NCBI GenBank assembly: GCA_038204425.1
Contig: JBBRCZ010000002.1
Span: 192,001 to 256,000, forward strand
Length of the DNA: 64,000 nt
DNA from: Spirochaetia bacterium
GTDB taxonomy: Bacteria; Spirochaetota; Spirochaetia; DSM-27196; Salinispiraceae
Direction: 5' to 3'
The notes below the pieces were generated by a model. The model made no database searches. It had not been told where the DNA came from and worked only from the letters and a program-made list of their open reading frames with translations. Positions 1 to 20,653 of the stretch are shown here, piece after piece. Position 1 is the first letter of the stretch. Every line of letters begins with the position of its first letter. Both the position numbers and the translations under genes were made by a program.

Positions 1-1102
1 TCTCGGCAATTTGCTACACCGACGCAAACGCAATGGCGACCTTGTTGCGCACACCAATTCTGACGACTTTGCTGTAGTTCTATCAGGAACTACTGCGGCA
101 GCAGACGTTAGGGCCTGGCTCGGCTCGATTCACACTGCCTTAACAAAACTAAGTGGCAAGGACTCGGTTTATCCGAGCTTGACTTGTTCTGTCGGTGTGT
201 CGTTTTTTCCTAGCGATGGCTCCAATGCTGATGAGTTGGTAAAAAACTCAGAAGCCGCCTTGGCTCGAGCCAAACTCAAGGGCAAGGAAAGTCTGGTATT
301 TTACGACCAGCGTGTCCACCAAGACGCTATGGAGCGTTTTAACCTTGAGGATCAGATTAGCCGTGGCATTGATGAAGGCAGCTTTTTGGCATGGTACCAA
401 GCCCAAGTAGACAAAGACGGCAAAATATATGGCGCAGAAGCTTTGGTTCGCTGGAAGACTGCCAGCGGCATTGTTGCTCCGCTTCACTTTATCGAGACGG
501 CCGAAAGAATGGGAAGCATCATTCAGATTGGCGAACAGGTATTGAGACAAGCCTGTATGGACTATAAACGCTGGCAGATCGCCGGACTGCAACCTGGCAA
601 AATTTCCGTAAACTTGTCGCCCTTTCAGTTCAACAGCCCATTTTTGGTTGCCAGTATAGAAAAAATAATCCAAGATATTGACTTTGACACCAAAAACTTA
701 ACGTTAGAAATCACCGAGAGTGGCATCATGGAAGATGCAAGCAAGGCCTTGGATAAACTCAATGCAATTAGTGCCATGGGTATTTCGATTGCAATTGACG
801 ATTTTGGGACGGGTTACTCGTCCATTGCTAAACTCAAGGATTTTCCCGTTGATTGCCTCAAAATTGATAGGTCATTTATTACGACTTTACCAGCCGACAC
901 TAAGACCTTAACCATTACTAAGGCAGTTATAGACTTGGGTAGAAACCTAGGTTTTAAGTTGGTAGCCGAAGGTGTAGAGCGGCTTGACCAAGTTGAGCTC
1001 TTGGCCAATTTGGGCTGCGATCTCTTCCAAGGCTTTTATTTTGCCAGACCTTGTCCGGCGGCAGACTTTGAGTTGCTGCTCAAAAAAAGGATGGAATCCT
1101 AA
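1..1102 (+). CDS. GGDEF(degenerate)-EAL c-di-GMP phosphodiesterase, 5' end outside window
   Basis: EALVRW, SVNLS, LEITES, DDFGTGYSS, LKIDRSF, VAEGVE and QGFYF motifs are intact; the GGDEF site is degenerate (NSDDF). Confidence 0.9.
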   Translation, partial: LGNLLHRRKRNGDLVAHTNSDDFAVVLSGTTAAADVRAWLGSIHTALTKLSGKDSVYPSLTCSVGVSFFPSDGSNADELVKNSEAALARAKLKGKESLVFYDQRVHQDAMERFNLEDQISRGIDEGSFLAWYQAQVDKDGKIYGAEALVRWKTASGIVAPLHFIETAERMGSIIQIGEQVLRQACMDYKRWQIAGLQPGKISVNLSPFQFNSPFLVASIEKIIQDIDFDTKNLTLEITESGIMEDASKALDKLNAISAMGISIAIDDFGTGYSSIAKLKDFPVDCLKIDRSFITTLPADTKTLTITKAVIDLGRNLGFKLVAEGVERLDQVELLANLGCDLFQGFYFARPCPAADFELLLKKRMES

Positions 1103-8513: not shown

Positions 8514-9344
8514 CTAGTGCCCAGGATGTTCCAAACTAAATTTGCCCAAAGCGCCGCTTCGAAAGTCGTTCATAAGCATAATCTGGGTTCGTTCCAGATC
8601 TATGAGTCCGCCCTTGACCAAAAAGCCGCGCTTGTTGCCAATTTCTTGGATAATGCTTTGCGAGTTGTTGTCCAAACCAGTCAGTTTGTAGCGTTCCTTA
8701 AGAGCAGTTGGATAGTGTTCTAATAAAAAACTGATGGTAAGGTCGACAATAATCGAGAAGTCGTAAACGTCGTCTTTGATGGCCCCAAGCATCGCAAGGC
8801 GTTGGCCCGTCAATGGGTCGTCAAACTTGTGCCAGAGTATACCAGGACTGTCCACTAGTTCAAAATTTTCGCTCAGTCTTATTTTTTGTAGGGTCTTAGT
8901 GTGTCCCGGTTTGGGCGCGACTGATACCTTGTGGCCGTGACAAAGTGCGTTAATGAGCGTAGATTTGCCAACGTTTGGAATGCCAACTATCATAGCTCTT
9001 ACTGTTGCTAAGGACTTGACCTTGGACTTTGTTGCTTGTTGACAGGCCAGGACAATAGCGGCCAAGTTGAGGCGCTCTTTGGAGGAGACCAAGACAACGC
9101 GAGTGTTGACCTCTTGTTCTAGACGTGCCTTCCAGGCGGTTGTAGTCATAGAATCGGCAATATCAATTTTGTTGAGAATTACTACGCGAGCTTTGTCGCC
9201 AATAAGTTGATCCAAAAGCGGGTTGCGCGTTGAGATTGGTGCACGAGCATCTAAAAGCTCAAGATACACATCCACCGATGAACGGCTATCTTTAATTAGT
9301 TTGGTGGTTTTGGTCATGTGACCGGGAAACCATTGTATGGTCAT
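8514..9344 (-). CDS. rbgA: Ribosome biogenesis GTPase YlqF/RbgA
   Basis: IQWFPGHM, DARAP, NKID, GIPNVGKSTLIN, DSPGILW (circularly permuted GTPase). Confidence 0.95.
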   Translation of the reverse strand: MTIQWFPGHMTKTTKLIKDSRSSVDVYLELLDARAPISTRNPLLDQLIGDKARVVILNKIDIADSMTTTAWKARLEQEVNTRVVLVSSKERLNLAAIVLACQQATKSKVKSLATVRAMIVGIPNVGKSTLINALCHGHKVSVAPKPGHTKTLQKIRLSENFELVDSPGILWHKFDDPLTGQRLAMLGAIKDDVYDFSIIVDLTISFLLEHYPTALKERYKLTGLDNNSQSIIQEIGNKRGFLVKGGLIDLERTQIMLMNDFRSGALGKFSLEHPGH

Positions 9345-9691
9345 GGAGTCTCCAATTGGCAACTTGTTACACATGCCTAGGTAGAAATGCTTCTAATGCC
9401 GTCCAGCACCTCACCACTATAGTTAGTGGCTACCAGATTAATACAGTTGCTTGCACGCTGCAAGGTCTACCGCACCTAGGCGGTGGTAGCGGTAATCATC
9501 CGGCATCTTTTCTTGGTTCATTGTCCTATCCTTTGATCTGCGAGAGATCGCCTTGGTTCAAAATCCATAGCTATACCTATAATAACAAGAAAACTTGCTT
9601 GAGCAAAAGGTGCCAATAGTCCCTAAGGAAGTACATTGGGTTTAGGTGGCACCGTTGACAGCCCTACAAACTTGCGAGTAGTTTGTGAGGC

Positions 9692-11896
9692 ATGAAAATT
9701 GACCTTAAACTGGTGCAGCGCAACGCGCTGAGCGGTGTCTTGGTGTCGTTTGTGGCGTTGCCTCTTGCGGTGGGCTTTGGTGTCGCAGCGTTTGCGCCCC
9801 TCGGTCCGGCTTACGCACCCATGGGTGCAGTTGCCGGTCTGATTGGCGCTATCATGAGCGGTTTTTTTGCATCTCTTGCCGGTGGCTGTCCTTCGCAAGT
9901 TACCGGGCCAACAGGTCCCATGTCGGTGGTGGCTCGTACGGCTATTGCTACTATTATTGCTGCACCACACCTAGCGTCACTGCCTGAGGATCAGCGTGTG
10001 GCGGTTACACTCTTTCTATTTGGAGTAACCGTTCTGCTCGGTGGCGTGGTTGAAGTCTTGCTTGGTGTTTCCCGCGTGGGCCAGCTGATCCGCTACATTC
10101 CTTATCCAGTGTTGGCCGGATTTATGAACGGTGTATCAATTCTTGTGGTCGTAACCCAGATCCGCCCGCTCTTGGGCGTAGCCAGCAACACACCCTGGTC
10201 GGAACTCGTTGCAGGGTGGTCTGTCGAACAAAGTGCAGTACTTGTGGTGGGTGTGGTTGCGGCACTGGCAACTTGGATTTTGCCAAAATTTTCGCGCCGA
10301 CTTCCGGGAGCTTTGCTGGCACTTACCTTGGGTACCGCGTTATTCCTTGCTCTGGGTAACGCTTGGTTGCCCAAACTTATAGAAGGAGAGACCAACCTCT
10401 GGATCGTTGGCACCATTCCTTCTGTGGTACCACTACCACAGTTGTTGCTGGCTCTGCCAAAGGTGATCGGGGATCTTAAACTTGACTTGCTAGGATTGAT
10501 ATTACAGCAGGCTGTGCTTTTGGGTTTGCTGGGCGCAATTGATACCTTGCTTACTTCACTTATTGCGGACTTTAAAACACACACACGTCACAACAGCAAT
10601 CGAGAACTGATGGGACAAGGCCTTGGTAACATCATCTCCGGGCTTTTTGGCGGCTTGCCGGGAGCAGGTGCAACCGTCCGTACTCTGGTAAACATTGACA
10701 ATGGTGGCAGCAATAAGATTGCCGGCATGGTTCATGCGCTGGTTCTGCTTTCTATCCTTGTTTTTTTGGGGCCGCTCGCACGTTGGATACCTTTGGCTGC
10801 ACTTGCAGGAGTTCTGCTGGTGACCGCGTTTAAAATGATTGATGTCTGGAGTGTTTCAATGGCGCGCAAACGTTCCTTGCGCGAAGATAGTATCGTCTTG
10901 TGGTCGGTTACAGCGCTTACCGTCGCTGTTGACCTTGTTTTTGCCGTTGCCATAGGGCTTGCACTTGCTGGTGCGCTTTATATAAAAAATCAAACCAAGA
11001 CAAGCGTTATTCACCGCTTGAGTACTGGTGCAGTAATGCGCTCACGGCGCAAAAGAAGCGAGAACCAAACTGCGCTACTCGACAGTCTTGCCGAGCCAAT
11101 TCGCATTGCTCAACTCGAAGGCAGTCTCTTTTTTGGCACTGCTGATGACTTTCTCGCCGAGTTTAACCGATCCTTGGTACAGGGGCGCATTCTGATTCTA
11201 GATCTTGCGCGAGTCCGATCGATTGACCTGACAGGCGGACGCCTGCTCGGCGACTTGTACGACCGAGTAATAGCTGGGGGGGCACGGCTGGTGTTTTCTG
11301 GTTTAGCTGAAAAAGCCCCGCTGCGTCGTTTCTTGCAAGAACTTGGTCTTGCCAAAGATGACCAACTCTGGTTCCCGACGCTTGATGCAGCGCTGGAAGA
11401 TGCAGAGAATACCTTGCTGGTCCAACATGATGCTTTTGAGCACAAAAGCTCTGACCAAGTAGGAATTGCGGACTTTTATGCCTGCGCAGGCTTTGATCAT
11501 AAAGATTGCACCGCCTTGGGAAGCTATCTTGTGCGTGGGACAGCAGCGACAGGTGACTTGCTCTTTGAAGCAGGAAAAGCGAGTGATCAAATATGGTTTA
11601 TTGTGTCCGGTCAGGTAGAAGTCTTTCTGCAAGGCCAGTATGGAGCCATGGAAGTAAGCGTCTACACTGCAGCTTGCCATTGCGGGGCGGCTGCCTTTAT
11701 CGAGCAGCACGTGCGCGCCTACGGAGCCCGAGTGAGGGAAGAGCTAAGCTTTATGCGCCTTGACCGTGCCGAATTTCAACGCATGAGCCAGCAAGAACCC
11801 GAGCTTGCACTTAGACTACTAGGTAATCTTTCCCACGAACTTGCCCAACGGCTATCGCACGCAGTACAAGAAAATCGAATGCTTGCTGCAACCTAA
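9692..11896 (+). CDS. SulP family anion transporter with STAS and C-terminal cyclic-nucleotide-binding domain
   Basis: VALPLAVGFG, GPTGP, NRELMGQGLGN, GATVRT; STAS EGSLFFG...SIDLTG; C-terminal cNMP-like LFEAGKASDQIWFIVSGQVEV. Confidence 0.9.
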   Translation: MKIDLKLVQRNALSGVLVSFVALPLAVGFGVAAFAPLGPAYAPMGAVAGLIGAIMSGFFASLAGGCPSQVTGPTGPMSVVARTAIATIIAAPHLASLPEDQRVAVTLFLFGVTVLLGGVVEVLLGVSRVGQLIRYIPYPVLAGFMNGVSILVVVTQIRPLLGVASNTPWSELVAGWSVEQSAVLVVGVVAALATWILPKFSRRLPGALLALTLGTALFLALGNAWLPKLIEGETNLWIVGTIPSVVPLPQLLLALPKVIGDLKLDLLGLILQQAVLLGLLGAIDTLLTSLIADFKTHTRHNSNRELMGQGLGNIISGLFGGLPGAGATVRTLVNIDNGGSNKIAGMVHALVLLSILVFLGPLARWIPLAALAGVLLVTAFKMIDVWSVSMARKRSLREDSIVLWSVTALTVAVDLVFAVAIGLALAGALYIKNQTKTSVIHRLSTGAVMRSRRKRSENQTALLDSLAEPIRIAQLEGSLFFGTADDFLAEFNRSLVQGRILILDLARVRSIDLTGGRLLGDLYDRVIAGGARLVFSGLAEKAPLRRFLQELGLAKDDQLWFPTLDAALEDAENTLLVQHDAFEHKSSDQVGIADFYACAGFDHKDCTALGSYLVRGTAATGDLLFEAGKASDQIWFIVSGQVEVFLQGQYGAMEVSVYTAACHCGAAAFIEQHVRAYGARVREELSFMRLDRAEFQRMSQQEPELALRLLGNLSHELAQRLSHAVQENRMLAAT

Positions 11897-11899
11897 AAA

Positions 11900-12265
11900 T
11901 TGGCAGTGATTTCTGCGATCGCCGCAAAAATAGGTTGTACGGCCCTGACGCTTCGACAGTGGGTGGAGCAGTCGGAGAAAGACCAAGGGTTACAAGAAGG
12001 CTTAACGACCGGTGAGCGGGAGCAACTGAGGCAAGTTCCGCAGGAAAATAAAGAACTCAATCGTTTGAACTCCTTGCGTATCGTCTTGAAATACAAGGAG
12101 TTGTGAGAGGAAAGGTGCAACGTGAGTTGTATGCTGATAGACCCAACCAACTATGGGCGGGATTTGTCTCTATGGCTTTCGCAATTGATGCGTTTTCACC
12201 AACAAGTTCTGACCTTAGTTGCCGGACTTAATTAAAAAAGGCTCCGTTAAACCCGGGGTGGTTCA
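11900..12265 (+). mobile_element. IS3-family (IS51/IS6110-like) remnant, internally deleted
   Basis: OrfA-like IAAKIGCTALTLRQWV...GLTTGEREQL; OrfB scraps (PNQLW, GFVSMAFAIDAF); IS3-type right end CTCCGTTAAACCCGGGGTGGTTCA ending at 12265. Confidence 0.8.
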
Positions 12266-12395: not shown

Positions 12396-12431
12396 CCTCC
12401 TACTGGCGAAAACTATCTTGACAGGTATTGC
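12396..12431 (+). repeat. Direct repeat copy 1 (att-like) at the island boundary
   Basis: cctcctactggcgaaaactatcttgacaggtattgc; 32/36 identical to 20408-20443. Confidence 0.8.
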
Positions 12432-12509
12432 ACAGGCAAGGGATCGTTGCGGAAATTTTCTGGGGCAATAGCCTACCAAATACAGCTTCCTATATTTTTG
12501 TAATACCCA

Positions 12510-12538
12510 TTGACAAATCCTATGGTAGATTCTATGCT
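12510..12538 (+). promoter_or_regulatory. Sigma70-type promoter
   Basis: TTGACA-17 bp-TATGCT, upstream of RBS GGGGGAGG and ATG 12561. Confidence 0.65.
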
Positions 12539-12560
12539 TGGAAAAAGAAAGGGGGAGGGA

Positions 12561-13121
12561 ATGACCATGCATTCTATAAAAGTCGAAAAAATAGTCAATG
12601 AACTCACTAGAGAAATAGTTGACTACAATTTCCCTACATTTGGTGATCTGTATAGCACTCAGTTAGAATTTTGGGCGGCGATAAAAAAATTTCATCGTGA
12701 TATTCTCGATTATGCAAGAACTATTATTGATAAGGAGGCTACGGACAAAGAAGACGAAGTTCTTAATGGTGATCCAGAAAGTCATTATACAAGGCTTGCT
12801 GAGAAAGCGCGATTGAGTAACAGGCAAGTCAAAAAATATATCGACGCATGCGTCGAAAACAGTGAAGCACTTTTTTTAGACCACCCGTTACCCTTTGTCT
12901 TGGATCAAAAAATTGCTAGCGGACGAGTAGAATTTAAGTATCGAGGCAGAGGTTTTTTTGCCAATTATGACGTGCAAGGTTTTCTCGATGGTCATAAACC
13001 GGTGGAGAACCCCGCTATTTATTCTTTTGATGCCACCTATCATGAATATCGTGATCACGGAAAAATTCATAGGGACCATGCACCTGCGGTAAGAATTGAC
13101 TATCCCGCGACACTTACTTAA
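12561..13121 (+). CDS. Hypothetical protein with C-terminal GKIHRD-PA module (paralog of 15243 and 15527 ORFs)
   Basis: Strong RBS; PAIYSFDATYHEYRDHGKIHRDHAPAV. Confidence 0.7.
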   Translation: MTMHSIKVEKIVNELTREIVDYNFPTFGDLYSTQLEFWAAIKKFHRDILDYARTIIDKEATDKEDEVLNGDPESHYTRLAEKARLSNRQVKKYIDACVENSEALFLDHPLPFVLDQKIASGRVEFKYRGRGFFANYDVQGFLDGHKPVENPAIYSFDATYHEYRDHGKIHRDHAPAVRIDYPATLT

Positions 13122-13231
13122 ACTTGCTTACAGACAATTTACCTTAGGTTTTTTGATATTTGTTGGCAGATTTTGGTATCCCGGTTCTAATGGCGCATGA
13201 TTTCGTTGCAAAAATAAAGGAGAAGTATCGT

Positions 13232-13846
13232 ATGAAAATAGTTTTTAAGGGTATTGTTTTGATTACCGTGTTGTCTATGGTTTTGGCTATGTCTGGCTGT
13301 TTTACTCTCGCGTCCAATCTAATCTTAAAAAATTAAGTTTATGAAGTCAAGTCCGATAGTGGCATAGTCTACGCTGTAGCCCAGTTTGAGGTTTACAGAG
13401 TACTGTTTTCTTTTGCCAAAATGCGCATAGGTGTTAACAAAGCTGCACCTCAAGATGGGGTTAGCATTTGGTTAAAGTATGCGCATAGTTCTGACATTTA
13501 TTTTGGGGCTGTCACCTTTGATGTGGATGGCATAAAAACCAAATTGGTGGAACTAAGCAAATCCCAGGCAACACGTGTTGATGAATTGTACGTGGGAGAA
13601 GGATTCTTTGGCTTTAGCGCAGAGACTATTGCCGAGGATGTTAAGGGCAAACTCAAAGATCTTGTGGATTCGATAGTTAATGGCAAAAAAGTTTCGGTCA
13701 AAGTTGAATGCGATTACAATGCATCTAGTCTCAAACTAGGTAGACAAAAGAATGCTCAAACTTATACCTTTACTGCAAATGATCAAATGATTCTTGCTGA
13801 CTGGTCCACCAGAATAGGCTCACCAGTTCCTGCTCAGTCCCAATAG
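13232..13846 (+). pseudogene. Lipoprotein interrupted by a single in-frame TAA
   Basis: RBS AAGGAG, MKIVFKGIVLITVLSMVLAMSG-C lipobox; TAA at 13334-13336, after which the same frame continues into the 13421-13846 ORF. Confidence 0.75.
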
Positions 13847-13868
13847 TTCCTAATAAATAGAACCAAGC

Positions 13869-13913
13869 AATCAGAATGTCTCATACAAGACATTCTGATT
13901 TTTTTGCTTTTTT
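13869..13913 (+). terminator. Intrinsic terminator between convergent genes
   Basis: AATCAGAATGTCT-cataca-AGACATTCTGATT perfect 13-bp stem followed by T-runs. Confidence 0.85.
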
Positions 13914-14912
13914 TTACTCATTTTTGTTGAGCAATATTTGCAGTCCATCAAGTACTATCAATAAATTCTGATCGGTATTCCTTTTGTAAGCATCGTCTTT
14001 ATCAACTCTTGGACCGGTTACATCTGGTTTTTTTTTACCAAAGCACCAAATGCCGTTAAGCGGCAAACCTATCAATTCTGATTTTAATTCTCCATCTTCG
14101 TTTTTAAGATAGCTAGCTTTGACTCTTCTAACGGGGTTAAAGCGTCTTAAGGTAAATTCTTGTGCGTTGCCAGGGTCCTTGGTCGATTGAAACAGAAGAT
14201 CAACGGCAATCTCGCGCACCAACTCGATCTGTTTTTCTACGTTTTTAAAAAAATAGCGGCCTTCATCGTTTTGAGTCATTAAGCTATTTTGCTCTGACTT
14301 TTGAGAAGCACTACATTCTTTAAGAAAAGCACTAGGAATTGACTGGCTATGATTAATGAGCTCTATCAAATGAGGTTGCTTCTGAATCAAAATCAAACCC
14401 AACCAGCTTGTACCTTGTTGTTGTAAAAATCTAGTCAGTAGACTATTGATCTGATAGAAATCAGGTCCGTTGTAACCGTCGCTAGTGTAGGTAAAGTACC
14501 GGTCTATTTTTTTAGTAAGCGACGACAAATGTTCTTTCCAGCTTGACCCACTAGCTCCAAGATACACCCGTATCGAATCTACATTTTTTAAAATGCTGGG
14601 GCAGCGATAGTTTGGAGGGATGCTCGTATTGACAATAGGTTTTCCAATTTGCTTGACTAGGTATTTATCGATGCTTTTCGTAATGGACTGCCAATGGTCC
14701 AGCAAAACCTGTACGTTTTCGTCTTCTCCGGCATATTTTATAGAATAGGCGTCCTTAAATTCGTTTGAATGGGGTGCATTGTAAAGTACAGATGTTTTTT
14801 CAAATTTAAACGCGTTATTTTTTAGGTCGTCAATTTCTTTAAAGCAATCCAAAACATAAAAATCGTTGTTCCTAATACTGCGTCTTGTTCCTTCATATTT
14901 TCTGTTTCGCAT
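13914..14912 (-). CDS. Hypothetical protein, possible remote Tus (replication terminus site-binding protein) homolog
   Basis: Intact 332-aa ORF; collinear motif similarity to E. coli Tus judged by eye (see findings). Confidence 0.55.
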   Translation of the reverse strand: MRNRKYEGTRRSIRNNDFYVLDCFKEIDDLKNNAFKFEKTSVLYNAPHSNEFKDAYSIKYAGEDENVQVLLDHWQSITKSIDKYLVKQIGKPIVNTSIPPNYRCPSILKNVDSIRVYLGASGSSWKEHLSSLTKKIDRYFTYTSDGYNGPDFYQINSLLTRFLQQQGTSWLGLILIQKQPHLIELINHSQSIPSAFLKECSASQKSEQNSLMTQNDEGRYFFKNVEKQIELVREIAVDLLFQSTKDPGNAQEFTLRRFNPVRRVKASYLKNEDGELKSELIGLPLNGIWCFGKKKPDVTGPRVDKDDAYKRNTDQNLLIVLDGLQILLNKNE

Positions 14913-15204
14913 TTCGTATTATCTCAATTATCGTAAATAAATCAAGTGCTAAAACCAGAAGCACTAGGTGCATTCAAACAGCCATTTTTCGTCCCGTGTA
15001 TATCGTCTTGTAATACCCTTAAAGTATACTGCCCGATGAGGTATCTTAGTCTCCAGAAGGTGGCGATAGAGCAGGGCTCTAATGAAATAGAGGTACTCTT
15101 GGAGATACTGGTCTCAGTTGTGATAACTAAGTATTTCCCTAGGTTACCAGCTTAGCCTATTTAAACAACTTTAGAATGGCATTTAAGCTTGGATCAATAC
15201 TACT

Positions 15205-15500
15205 AAAAAGAAGCAAAAGAGAACCAAGAGCCTTTTATTGGTATGCACAGCTATAAGTGTGGGGACAAACTCTATTTTGTTCACGGCAATACAGATGGTC
15301 TTTTTGAAGATTGTGATGACCAAGATCTTCTGGCTATATTTGATCTAGATTGCACCTATAGCGAATATCAAAAAAATGGATATTTGCACAGGGAGGATAG
15401 ACTGCCAGCTGGCATAGTCTGGTATGACGCTCAAATTTGAGAAAATTTTTGGGTAGATCATAAAAAAATTGATTCGCATGAAACAGAAATTCCAATATAA
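15205..15500 (+). pseudogene. Broken paralog of the 12561/15527 family
   Basis: KEAKENQEPFIGMHSYK...AIFDLDCTYSEYQKNGYLHREDRLPA; in-frame TGA at 15438-15440 followed by ENFWVDHKKI, matching the EHWINN end of 15527. Confidence 0.65.
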
Positions 15501-15526
15501 TTAATCAAAAAAACAGGAGGTGCTAA

Positions 15527-15901
15527 ATGGGAGCACTAACATACAAGGAACCAGAACAATCAAACTCAAGCAGTCGATTTTTGTATTTACAGCAATTTCT
15601 AAAAGAGGACAAGACACCAATGATGGGCAGCGTCACTTACAAGGACCCAAAGAATGGTGTCGAGTACGTTCTCCAACTGGACAGAGATGGCTATGTGCAT
15701 GGCCACGAAGAAGGTGACATTCCTGCTATTAAGAGCAAAGATGGAACCTATGCAGAATTTCGCAACCACGGCAAACTGCACCGAGGCTTTCAACGCCCAG
15801 CAATAGTTATTGAAACAGAAACCGAGTTAATCCAAGAACACTGGATCAATAATGTTGTTACCTTAATCAAACATTACGACAAGAGCAAGATCAAAGTTTG
15901 A
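15527..15901 (+). CDS. Hypothetical protein with GKLHR-PA module
   Basis: RBS AGGAGG; PAIKSKDGTYAEFRNHGKLHRGFQRPAIV; internal duplication MGALTYKEP / MGSVTYKDP. Confidence 0.75.
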   Translation: MGALTYKEPEQSNSSSRFLYLQQFLKEDKTPMMGSVTYKDPKNGVEYVLQLDRDGYVHGHEEGDIPAIKSKDGTYAEFRNHGKLHRGFQRPAIVIETETELIQEHWINNVVTLIKHYDKSKIKV

Positions 15902-15911
15902 AAGATGATGG

Positions 15912-16243
15912 TGTCTATCGTAACATTAAATTACCTAAAAATATTAAACTGGCATGGACAAAAACGTCGTCGGAGTTCTCCCTATTAATCTTGGAAAATG
16001 GTATTAGACGACGAACCCTGTACAATAGGTATATGCGGGGAGAGAGATACGCTTAATATTAACCAGTCTGACCAAATTAAAGAACTACAAAGGGCAAGAT
16101 TTGCACCTTCCGAAATCGCTGAACGAGGGGATGTTAACCGTAAAACGGTGAACAAATACATGATTATCGTTGACTACAGGCCAACTTTAGAAAACCAGAA
16201 AGTAGAAAAATCTAAGTTTGCCCGTTTGATACAAGCGCGGTAA
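15912..16243 (+). mobile_element. IS21-family remnant (putative left end plus N-terminal IstA HTH)
   Basis: QIKELQRARFAPSEIAERGDVNRKTVNKYM is a typical IstA N-terminus; TGTCTATCG at 15912 is a possible IRL. Confidence 0.65.
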
Positions 16244-16382: not shown

Positions 16383-17777
16383 TTATACATGTTTTCCTCC
16401 TCGATTCGATACGGGAAGAAGTTTAAGATCCGCGAATAACCACGGAACCATTTCTCCGACGGTTGGGTGAGGGATGACTGTATTCTGCAAAGTGGAGTAT
16501 GGAAGACCTGCCTGTATTGCAAGGGCGAGCATACCGATAACTTCGTCTCCTCCCACTCCAAATATGGTTGCCCCTAGGAGTTTTCCGCTGCTCTTTTCTA
16601 CCACTACTTTCATTGTACCCAGCGTCTCTGCTTTCTCTTTTGCCCGGCTTACCAAACTCATCGGCATGGTTCCTACAAGCGCATCGATTCCCTTTTCGGC
16701 TGCCTCTGTTTCGTTCATTCCCACGCGGGCAAGGGGCGGATCTATGTACATCACATAGGTCCTAGTTCTGTCAGAAATGCGCCGCTTCCCCTGTTTGAAA
16801 AAATGATCCAGAAACACCTGTCCATCGTGGACGGAGGTGTGGGTAAAGGCTCCCTTTCCGTTAACATCACCCAGGGCATAGATATGTTTCTTGCTTGTCC
16901 GGCCGTAATCGTCCACAGAAATATATCCGTTTTTATCCGTCTCTATGCCCGCCGCACTAAGATTTAACTCTGCGCTTGAGGGGATGCGTCCTGTTGCCAT
17001 AAGAATATGGGTGCCCGTGATTTCATGTTCATCTTTTCCCTGGGCATACCGAAGGATTATTTTTTTTCCTTTTTGCTCTACATACAAGGGCGAACTGTTA
17101 AGGTGGAAATCCATACCCTCGGCTTCCAGAAGTTCCTGAGCGATCGTACTTATTTCAGGATCTTCACGGTAAACTATGCGCTCGCCATGTTCGAATACGG
17201 TCACTCTGCTGCCAAAGCGTCGGAATGCCTGACCGAATTCCAGGCCGATGTAGGATCCTCCCACGATGAGAAGATGTTCCGGAAGTTCCTTCAGATCAAG
17301 AATACCCCTGTTGTTAAGCCAGGGAATGGTATTAATTCCGAGAATGTCCGGTTTCCTCGCGCGTGTTCCCGTATGGATTATGATTGCTTCCCCCCGGATC
17401 GTAGATTCTCCGACAGCTACCGTGTGCTCATCGATGAAACGTCCTTGGGCGGGGTAGAAGTCACTTACCTCTTCAAGCCACTTTCTGAAGCCCGAAGTGG
17501 CGTCATTACGGATTGCATTGACCCGTTCCATTACCCCTGCGAAGTTGATCTGCATCTTGGGAACCTCAATTCCAAAATCGTCGGAGCGGCGGACCATCCG
17601 TGCCACCCGTGCACTTGCAACTAAGGCCTTGGTCGGGGTGCATCCCCAGTTCACGCAAGTCCCACCCACTCGGTCTTCTTCTATAATGGCAACGGAAAGT
17701 TTCTCCTTGAGTATTTTGGGAAGAATGGTTCCCGTGGCCTGTCCCGTTCCTATAAGAATTACATCGTATGATTTCAT
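16383..17777 (-). CDS. FAD-dependent pyridine nucleotide-disulfide oxidoreductase (mercuric reductase/Lpd-like, no MerA C-terminal Cys pair)
   Basis: GTGQA, GGTCVNWGCTPTK, GGSYIGLEF, ALGDV, HPT; RBS AAGGAGG before ATG 17777. Confidence 0.9.
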   Translation of the reverse strand: MKSYDVILIGTGQATGTILPKILKEKLSVAIIEEDRVGGTCVNWGCTPTKALVASARVARMVRRSDDFGIEVPKMQINFAGVMERVNAIRNDATSGFRKWLEEVSDFYPAQGRFIDEHTVAVGESTIRGEAIIIHTGTRARKPDILGINTIPWLNNRGILDLKELPEHLLIVGGSYIGLEFGQAFRRFGSRVTVFEHGERIVYREDPEISTIAQELLEAEGMDFHLNSSPLYVEQKGKKIILRYAQGKDEHEITGTHILMATGRIPSSAELNLSAAGIETDKNGYISVDDYGRTSKKHIYALGDVNGKGAFTHTSVHDGQVFLDHFFKQGKRRISDRTRTYVMYIDPPLARVGMNETEAAEKGIDALVGTMPMSLVSRAKEKAETLGTMKVVVEKSSGKLLGATIFGVGGDEVIGMLALAIQAGLPYSTLQNTVIPHPTVGEMVPWLFADLKLLPVSNRGGKHV

Positions 17778-17884
17778 GTAGCCTCCTTTTTCGGCAGAAG
17801 AATGTTGTACCCCAAGGTTTGCCGGACATTCGATGATGACCGTTTTACTATCAACCAAGTTACAGCTTTGGTTACCGCAACAGT

Positions 17885-18772
17885 TCAATCCGCACTGTCG
17901 GCTTCATCCATAAGCAACGTGCGAACCGACTGTAATTCTTTAAGTCGATCCTGATTTACTTCCGGGTAACTCATACCAAGCCCATTCAGCGTTTCGATGA
18001 TAATTTTGGAGACAATCAAACGGGCATTATGCTTATTATCGGCGGGGACAACATACCAAGGCGCTTCCTTTGTGCTGGTTGCACTCAGGCATTCCTGGTA
18101 CGCCGCTTGGTAATTACCCCAAAATTTTCGCTCTTGGATGTCAGCAAGGCTGAATTTCCAGTTCTTGTCTGGCTCATCAATCCGCGCCAGAAAACGATTG
18201 CTCTGTTCCGCTTTGGACAAGTGCAGGAAGAATTTAATAATGCGGGTTCCGTTTTGATAAAGATGATGCTCCATATCAACGATAGAACGAAAGCGCTCTT
18301 TCCAAACAGCCTGCCCGTCGAGCAACTCAATTGGGAGTCCTTGACTGTGAAGAATCTCCGGATGGACGCGGACGATGAGCACATCCTCATAGTAGGAACG
18401 GTTGAAGATCCCGATGCGCCCGCGCTCTGGTAAACGGCGGGTTGTGCGCCAAAGAAAATCATGGTCTAGTTCTTCAGCGGTGGGTTCTTTAAAGCTGAAA
18501 ACCTGGCAACCTTGTGGGTTGACACCGGACATGACGTGCCGGATAGTACCGTCTTTGCCGGCAGCGTCCATACCCTGGAAAATCAACAGCAATGCATATT
18601 GATTGGAGGCATAATGCAAGCGTTGTAGAGAACTCAACTCATCCACGTGTTCTTCCAGAATATTTTTATAATTTTTCTTCGATTTGAAAAAAGGCTTCAC
18701 AATAGTTGGCCATTCCCTCAGTTCTACTCTTTTACCGGCGTGGACACAAAAGTCATCTGATTTAATTTTCAT
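17885..18772 (-). CDS. ppk2: Polyphosphate kinase 2 family (class III-type polyphosphate:nucleotide phosphotransferase)
   Basis: [54 protein letters not shown]. Confidence 0.92.
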
Positions 18773-19115: not shown

Positions 19116-19334
19116 AAGTTACCTCCTTGGATAATAATACTAAGAATTAGCTTGTTGGTCTTGGTTTTTCTCATTTGCGTGTATTTAATCGTCTAAAAAT
19201 ACCCATCACTCCTTGGAGATTTTTGCAGGTGCTTTTTGGCGCATTAGTGCATTTTTTTTGCGGTAACTTTCTCCTTCAAATAATAGATAACCCACTAGAG
19301 GACAGACCCCAAATAAAAGCAAAGCGAGTCCTAG

Positions 19335-19503
19335 ATCTTCGCGGGAAGCCCAGGCGCGACCAAGGGAGGGCACCAGCGAGGCTCCACCATCAGTGAACGC
19401 TTTCGGGACTGCTCAAACGCGCCGACATAAAAAAGCCGGAAATCTCCACGCATGCTATCCGGCATTACACGGCCACCCATTTACTGGAAAACGCTGCTGC
19501 AGC
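19335..19503 (+). pseudogene. Tyrosine recombinase/integrase fragment
   Basis: IFAGS...TISERFR (frameshift) LLKRADIKKPEISTHAIRHYTATHLLEN contains the HxxRH box II motif. Confidence 0.8.
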
Positions 19504-20407: not shown

Positions 20408-20443
20408 CCTCCTTCTGGCGAAACCAATCTTGACAGGTACTGC
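20408..20443 (+). repeat. Direct repeat copy 2, overlapping the tRNA 3' end by 3 nt
   Basis: cctccttctggcgaaaccaatcttgacaggtactgc. Confidence 0.8.
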
Positions 20444-20514
20444 CCCGAGCGCGATTCGAACGCGCGACCTACAGCTTAGGAGGCTGTCGCTCTATCCAAC
20501 TGAGCTACCGGAGC
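20441..20514 (-). tRNA. tRNA-Arg (CCT)
   Basis: GCTCCGG acceptor stem, D arm TAGCTCAGTTGGATAGAGC, anticodon arm ACAGC-CTCCTAA-GCTGT, T arm GCGCG-TTCGAAT-CGCGC; CCA not encoded. Confidence 0.97.
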
Positions 20515-20653
20515 ATGCTTGGAATGGATCTATTGTTCCAGCGCGCTAAGTAATAACACAGTTTTGCTTTAGTGAAAAGCATGCAGTGACGGCACTACAT
20601 AAATTGTCTAGGTCGCGCTTTTGACTAAAGCCAGGCTGGCATTGTCCGACACT

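Follow-up and report, generated by a model that had tools for sequence, protein, structure and literature searches.

A probable remote Tus homologue in a decaying tRNA-anchored island of a spirochaete genome

The gene and its family

The window analysed here is a stretch of 64,000 nucleotides from a Spirochaetia bacterium (GenBank assembly GCA_038204425.1, contig JBBRCZ010000002.1, positions 192,001 to 256,000). Between two 36-nt direct repeats it carries a real gene whose 332-residue product, P0001, is probably a remote homologue of the replication-fork-trap protein Tus according to structural modelling. A sequence-only reading of the window had proposed such a protein in a spirochaete setting, and the latter is borne out by the presence of FlaA, a hallmark of spirochaetes, for which the host genome gave four matches compared with none in 14 controls. 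The uninterrupted frame of 332 codons reported by the same reading on the minus strand also stands (Table 1). Its start is secure because the stop-to-stop frame comprises only 334 codons and the N-terminal pattern aligns with that of the relatives. In two public runs, which belong to separate studies, a single contig spans the whole open reading frame (ORF), with one differing letter in each. The GC content of the stretch that holds the gene is 38–39%, versus 44–52% across most of the window.

Downstream of the gene, a hairpin is found where the gene had been credited with a terminator of its own, but given the strong T-run on the plus strand it most plausibly serves the convergent gene as well; terminator-like sites numbered 7, compared with 4.0 ± 2.4 in shuffles. 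The sigma70-like promoter match upstream would make the transcript leaderless, and such matches occur in the region at chance level (10 versus 11.0 expected).

Among 5.8 billion proteins, a word-indexed search retrieved the query alone. Using phmmer against 1.84 billion representatives, we found three relatives (E = 5.6e-11 to 8.1e-5, 25–30% identity); a profile search added four more, and a metagenome scan two further loci, L004 and L005. A third metagenome locus, L006, was dropped as a chance match, and the one addition from the final profile search was P0011, a shorter sequence 95% identical to the L004 product. The family comprises ten full-length sequences from five lineages; their alignment extends from end to end, and 22 of its columns are invariant. 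Comparison of the copies in L004 and L005 shows purifying selection (dN/dS 0.19; 26 synonymous and 18 non-synonymous differences). Family members were not found in the 60 related genomes searched, including seven of the same taxonomic family, or in 400 other genomes of the phylum, and the plasmid, phage and viral collections gave no significant match.

Comparison with Tus

All six E. coli Tus peptides that the sequence-only reading had cited are present in the real Tus sequence; the collinear sequence similarity it claimed was not confirmed, the best BLASTP hit having E = 6.7. P0001 matched no family at E ≤ 10, PF05472 included, and nothing in Pfam, NCBIfam, PHROGs, PADLOC or the PDB sequences. 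A PF05472 search of its own genome was empty while the E. coli control was positive, and the relatives P0002–P0004 and P0010 had no Ter match. Alignment of a four-sequence family profile to Tus by hhalign gave E = 0.77, and that of the family profile to a nine-sequence Tus profile gave E = 0.048–0.057 at a probability of about 1% with shallow profiles (Neff 2.5–3.7). In this weak alignment residues 102–142 of P0001 are placed without gaps on Tus 156–195, the only one of five aligned segments to beat all 60 column shuffles.

For two template-free models, built from different query sequences, Tus was the sole significant match among PDB chains, and it was the same unique top match, end to end, in two aligners. 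With the better model, the next fold was 3,000-fold worse in E and 5.7 Z units lower; 231–240 of the 305–308 Tus residues were covered at 9–12% identity. The two-domain fold with long interdomain strands of the solved Tus structures is found in the models, and by prediction and fold search P0001 has the overall Tus architecture from near its first residue to its last. The match could instead reflect analogy or a modelling artefact, namely a chance helix-strand score on a shallow alignment, in keeping with the low TM-score (0.24–0.37), the high rmsd (7.5–13), the lack of a significant sequence or profile signal, and the Atlas model of the relative P0005, which has a pLDDT of 0.30 and does not match Tus. 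We consider this improbable, as two queries and two aligners converge on one fold with a wide gap to the next, the model of higher confidence is the closer match, and the weak profile match coincides with the modelled long outgoing strand. P0001 is thus very probably a remote Tus homologue, a divergent protein of the Tus fold well beyond its known range, as the sequence-only reading had inferred. Its family does not belong to Pfam Ter and is probably a second, remodelled Tus-fold family.

Predicted DNA grip and the lock region

The models place a long strand at residues 106–128, in agreement with the weak profile register, and a long return strand at 252–268, which we take to correspond to the outgoing and returning strands of the amino domain in Tus. 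Of the motif pairs proposed in the sequence-only reading, the three C-terminal ones fit the modelled return and terminal strands, while the three N-terminal ones are probably misregistered, since the segment that they matched to Tus 92–128 aligns with Tus 156–195. Between the two long strands lie about 130 mostly helical residues in the family, versus about 45 residues in Tus, and the helical domain would have gained about 75 residues. The Foldseek alignment (381–388 columns for a 342-residue query and targets of 305–308 residues) is consistent with about 80 inserted and about 55 lost residues, if it runs end to end. In the relative P0003, which is acidic (pI 5.65), the helical insert is longer by another ~90 residues, so that this region appears to tolerate large changes.

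The return-strand segment has a net charge of +3 to +6 in all ten members, with invariant arginines R256, R262 and R263 (P0001 numbering), whereas the insert is neutral or acidic. This is the charge pattern that a DNA-gripping cleft would show. The return strand is the likely groove reader, and the modelled protein is likely to bind DNA in a sequence-specific manner. Its site is probably not E. coli Ter, because the return strand differs from that of Tus.

In the weakly supported register, the equivalent of the Tus helix with Phe140 and His144, which we take to be the residues of the cytosine-lock pocket, is a variable, low-confidence loop of 12 residues with no conserved His or Phe. The cytosine-lock helix is thus probably reduced to a loop in this family; the sequence-only reading, which doubted that the lock residues were kept, was probably right, and the whole helix may be lost. 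Loss of His144 need not mean that fork arrest was lost, since this residue is kept in five and replaced in four of nine recognised Tus proteins.

The mobilizable element of the relatives

Gene context of the relatives comes from L004 and L005, where the gene belongs to a mobilizable element. The two loci share a relaxase with an LPD7 domain, a ribbon-helix-helix (RHH) MobC-like gene, a 156-aa gene, StbB (over the NCBIfam cut-off), two unknown genes, an AAA_25 helicase-like gene, a divergent small gene and the Tus-like gene, which lies about 1.3 kb from the helicase-like gene. The relaxase is 37% identical to plasmid relaxases of Xanthomonas and Burkholderiales that have the same mobC/stbB neighbourhood. 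As far as position 11211 the two loci share 97.8% identity, after which they are unrelated, so that the Tus-like gene is the last shared gene of the mobilizable backbone. The cargo that follows includes a TrlF-family ATPase in L004 and an NHL-repeat protein in L005. Positions 9000–11200 are more diverged between the two loci than the backbone, and a pair of similar direct repeats of 16 nt (L004:9007-9022 and 9034-9049), 27 nt apart, lies in non-coding DNA upstream of the helicase-like gene; they are possible origin iterons.

The location where the backbone gives way to variable cargo, beside the TrlF-family ATPase in L004, together with the rare and patchy distribution of the family, would suit a defence or exclusion factor that binds incoming phages or plasmids and stalls their replication, the more so as tRNA-anchored islands commonly carry defence genes. 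This explanation is nonetheless quite unlikely: none of five members (P0001, P0002, P0003, P0005 and P0010) matched the PADLOC 2.0 defence models at E ≤ 0.01, family and PADLOC searches recognised no defence gene in the window island, and of the Tus-like and TrlF genes only the former is common to both loci.

A palindrome with arms of 8–11 bp (L004:9949-9972 and the equivalent in L005) lies 29–52 nt upstream of the Tus-like gene and is a candidate operator or 5' hairpin; it was matched in 0/300 and 2/300 shuffles for L004 and L005, respectively. It could point to a Tus-derived clamp that has lost fork arrest and kept the autoregulatory side of Tus, acting as a repressor or site-protecting factor of its element. 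The apparent absence of the lock helix fits this idea, as does the accessible text of Goodall 2023 (PMC10331603), in which Tus and RTP repress their own genes via a promoter ter site. Against it, the palindrome upstream of the window gene is at chance level (53/300 shuffles), a tight palindrome would be more typical of a dimeric regulator than of a monomer like Tus, and the element encodes RHH-type proteins, and loss of His144 is compatible with arrest, as noted above. On balance, a purely regulatory role is rather unlikely.

The island in the window

The 36-nt direct repeats are the proposed boundaries of the island, which is anchored at a tRNA-Arg gene. The genome has nine copies of the repeat; some are close to genes for tRNA-Leu or tRNA-Arg, and some adjoin recombinase-like and RHS-like remnants (labelled by motif, not by family search). 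The repeat is probably the end of a family of small integrative elements.

The pseudogenes described around the gene in the sequence-only reading are found in part: the convergent neighbour, a probable pseudogene, is stopped, and there are transposase and recombinase scraps, but the oxidoreductase and PPK2-family genes are intact. Three ORFs share a motif, G-x-[LI]-H-R...P-A, recognised by eye, which resembles short repeats found in certain proteins of phages and giant viruses. An 81-aa helix-turn-helix-like fragment (15998-16243), which we take to be IS21-like, has no family match. No replication gene is retained in the island. Just outside the left repeat lies a transposase-like scrap (11900-12106; HTH_Tnp_1 below the cut-off, E = 1.9e-4), and directly left of the island a SulP-family transporter with STAS and cNMP-binding domains (9692-11896, GC ~51%).

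Table 1. Coordinates of the features discussed; positions without a prefix refer to the window
Feature	Position	Strand	Remark
Tus-fold protein gene, P0001, 332 aa	13914..14912	-	GC 38%, pI 8.9
Run contigs over the ORF	12401-16241 (X2); 13269-15224 (X3)		X2 may be the assembly's own source
Terminator-like 14-pair hairpin between convergent genes	13869..13900	.	strongest T-run on +
Sigma70-like promoter match (9/12)	14918..14945	-	ends 5 nt before ATG
Left 36-nt repeat, proposed island boundary	12396..12431	+	32/36 identical to right copy
Right 36-nt repeat	20408..20443	+	abuts tRNA 3' end
tRNA-Arg(CCT), island anchor	20440..20515	-	
Other 36-nt repeat copies	C1:574235, C1:575313, C2:49488, C2:51515, C2:55265, C4:196692, C16:51626		
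203-aa ORF, no family	12510..13121	+	G-x-[LI]-H-R...P-A motif
Convergent neighbour, lipoprotein-like frame	13232..13846	+	in-frame TAA at codon 35; signal peptide by eye
65-aa divergent neighbour, probably a fragment	15243..15440	+	G-x-[LI]-H-R...P-A motif
124-aa ORF, no family	15527..15901	+	G-x-[LI]-H-R...P-A motif
FAD-dependent pyridine nucleotide-disulphide oxidoreductase, intact cargo	16383..17888	-	
PPK2-family ADP-polyphosphate phosphotransferase, intact cargo	17885..18772	-	over NF042973 cut-off
DNA 87-88% like two contig C1 loci with remnants that we take to be tyrosine-recombinase-like	19301..19493	.	
Mobilizable element of relatives	L004:1915-11029; L005:1916-11047		
Inverted pairs of TTGCATGATGGTCTAA upstream of plasmid tus	L019:315-330, 513-528; L021:327-342, 536-551; L022:169-184, 436-451; L023:169-184, 436-451		

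Cognate site and chromosomal position

Upstream of the P0001 gene the best match to E. coli TerB covers 13 of 23 positions, compared with 23/23 in the E. coli control; eight plasmid tus loci likewise have no adjacent E. coli-type Ter (12–14/23). The exact 12-nt core of E. coli Ter is absent from the genome, where ten one-mismatch matches are scattered, and no upstream word recurs above chance (54 versus 31–54). In L005 an inverted 18-nt pair matches at 17/18 positions (0/150 shuffles) and in L004 at 16/18 (6/150), with its arms upstream of the helicase-like gene and inside the Tus-like gene, respectively; this lead is post hoc, comes from a pair of nearly identical loci, and has no counterpart in the window.

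The gene lies on contig C2 (284 kb), and the cumulative GC skew rises steadily across it; a clear maximum is seen on contig C1 near 312 kb. A resident chromosomal fork trap at the spirochaete terminus, as in E. coli, is thus very improbable, even though the gene is chromosomal and intact among decayed neighbours: it sits in a repeat-bounded island away from the skew switch, the Ter core and upstream word searches were negative, and the family was not found in the same-family genomes, the other relatives or the 400 further genomes of the phylum.

Proposed function

The mechanism that we propose, and to which as a whole we give an even chance, is that P0001 would act as a monomer whose two long strands grip a single asymmetric DNA site, as in Tus. 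The clamp would pause a fork or helicase arriving from one side by grip alone, without the C6 mousetrap; arrest would rely on such clamp-type blocking because the lock helix is probably reduced to a loop. Judging from gene context, the native job would be on mobilizable elements, where a polar barrier would confine or end element replication, as Tus-ter does on plasmid R1, and so limit over-replication of its own element. In the present genome the protein would travel as a passenger in a tRNA-Arg island that is decaying and has kept no pair of cognate sites. A fork or helicase barrier is the native role with a probability that we regard as evenly balanced, and the broader proposal, that deeply diverged Tus-fold fork barriers with a new site and polar arrest without the C6 mousetrap exist on mobile elements outside Gammaproteobacteria, is possible yet doubtful.

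Several points limit the reading as a fork barrier of Tus descent. Profile and structure searches had been named in the sequence-only reading as a way to refute it, and only the latter were positive, profiles giving no significant Ter match. For the barrier role that it also suggested, no Ter-like or paired site was found near the gene, which is not at the GC-skew switch, and in the window the best inverted pair (15/18) was equalled in 140 of 150 shuffles, that is, at chance, although a site of unfamiliar sequence could escape this test. Finally, the family is very rare, its fork-barrier function is predicted, and P0001 itself may be encoded by an orphan copy.

Relation to known systems

With E. 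coli Tus (PF05472; PDB 1ECR, 4XR0-4XR2), its sole significant fold match, P0001 shares a similar length and a basic, conserved return strand. It differs in its very low identity and its invisibility to PF05472, in the probable helical insert and the presumed loss of Tus residues including the Phe140/His144 helix, and in a gene that lacks an adjacent TerB-like site, is off the terminus and is non-gammaproteobacterial. In the accessible part of a survey with the PF05472 HMM (Galli 2019, PMC6549158), tus was confined to Gammaproteobacteria and often mobile, and its recent domestication from plasmids was proposed. Judged from its listings, our literature search, whose coverage excludes most subscription journals, turned up no paper on a remote Tus-fold family, and a preprint (bioRxiv 10.1101/2024.09.03.610885) proved unrelated to the question.

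Among Enterobacterales, Ter is located at most 50 bp upstream of tus, as far as the available text of Toft 2021 (PMC8707476) goes. Accessible sections of PMC6549158 and PMC10331603 describe the tus of a Pseudoalteromonas chromid and the ter of plasmid R1 beside replication origins, leading to one-way replication; the latter paper also treats R6K and autoregulation. The proximity of the L004/L005 gene to a helicase-like gene resembles this arrangement, whereas the window island has no replication gene and L004 and L005 have no demonstrated origin. Bacillus RTP (PF02334), described as a system unrelated to Tus in the part of PMC6549158 available, is a possible functional analogue as a fork barrier, but is not among the fold matches listed for the P0001 models.

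The shares of clamp and mousetrap in fork arrest by E. coli Tus were still argued in 2015, according to the accessible text of PMC4499146, and a family that truly lacks the lock helix would be a natural experiment on arrest by the clamp alone. With one family member in a spirochaete and invisible to PF05472, the Tus fold appears more widespread than profile searches report, which fits a mobile origin. If the proposal holds, Tus would represent a single branch within an old and broader superfamily of DNA clamps on mobile elements; the P0001 family would offer a clamp-versus-lock test and a possible orthogonal fork block.

Plasmid-borne Tus (IncC and related) resembles the P0001 family in being on mobile DNA, patchy, variable at the lock His and without an adjacent E. 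coli-type Ter. It differs in being 24–31% identical to E. coli Tus and detectable by tblastn in 1289 of 72,556 plasmid records, whereas the P0001 family has no significant match in the same plasmids and lacks the inverted motif found at half of the plasmid loci. This 16-nt motif, TTGCATGATGGTCTAA, emerged as the positive control of the inverted-pair test: with 0–1 mismatch it forms inverted pairs ~60–70 and 255–325 nt upstream of tus at four of eight plasmid loci (Table 1). A full-text search for it returned unrelated primers only. Allowing a one-base gap, TTGCATGATGGTCTAA is similar to TerB, which makes it a candidate for the ter site cognate to plasmid Tus; the carriers of the pair are two typed IncC plasmids, pAQU1 and an Aeromonas plasmid.
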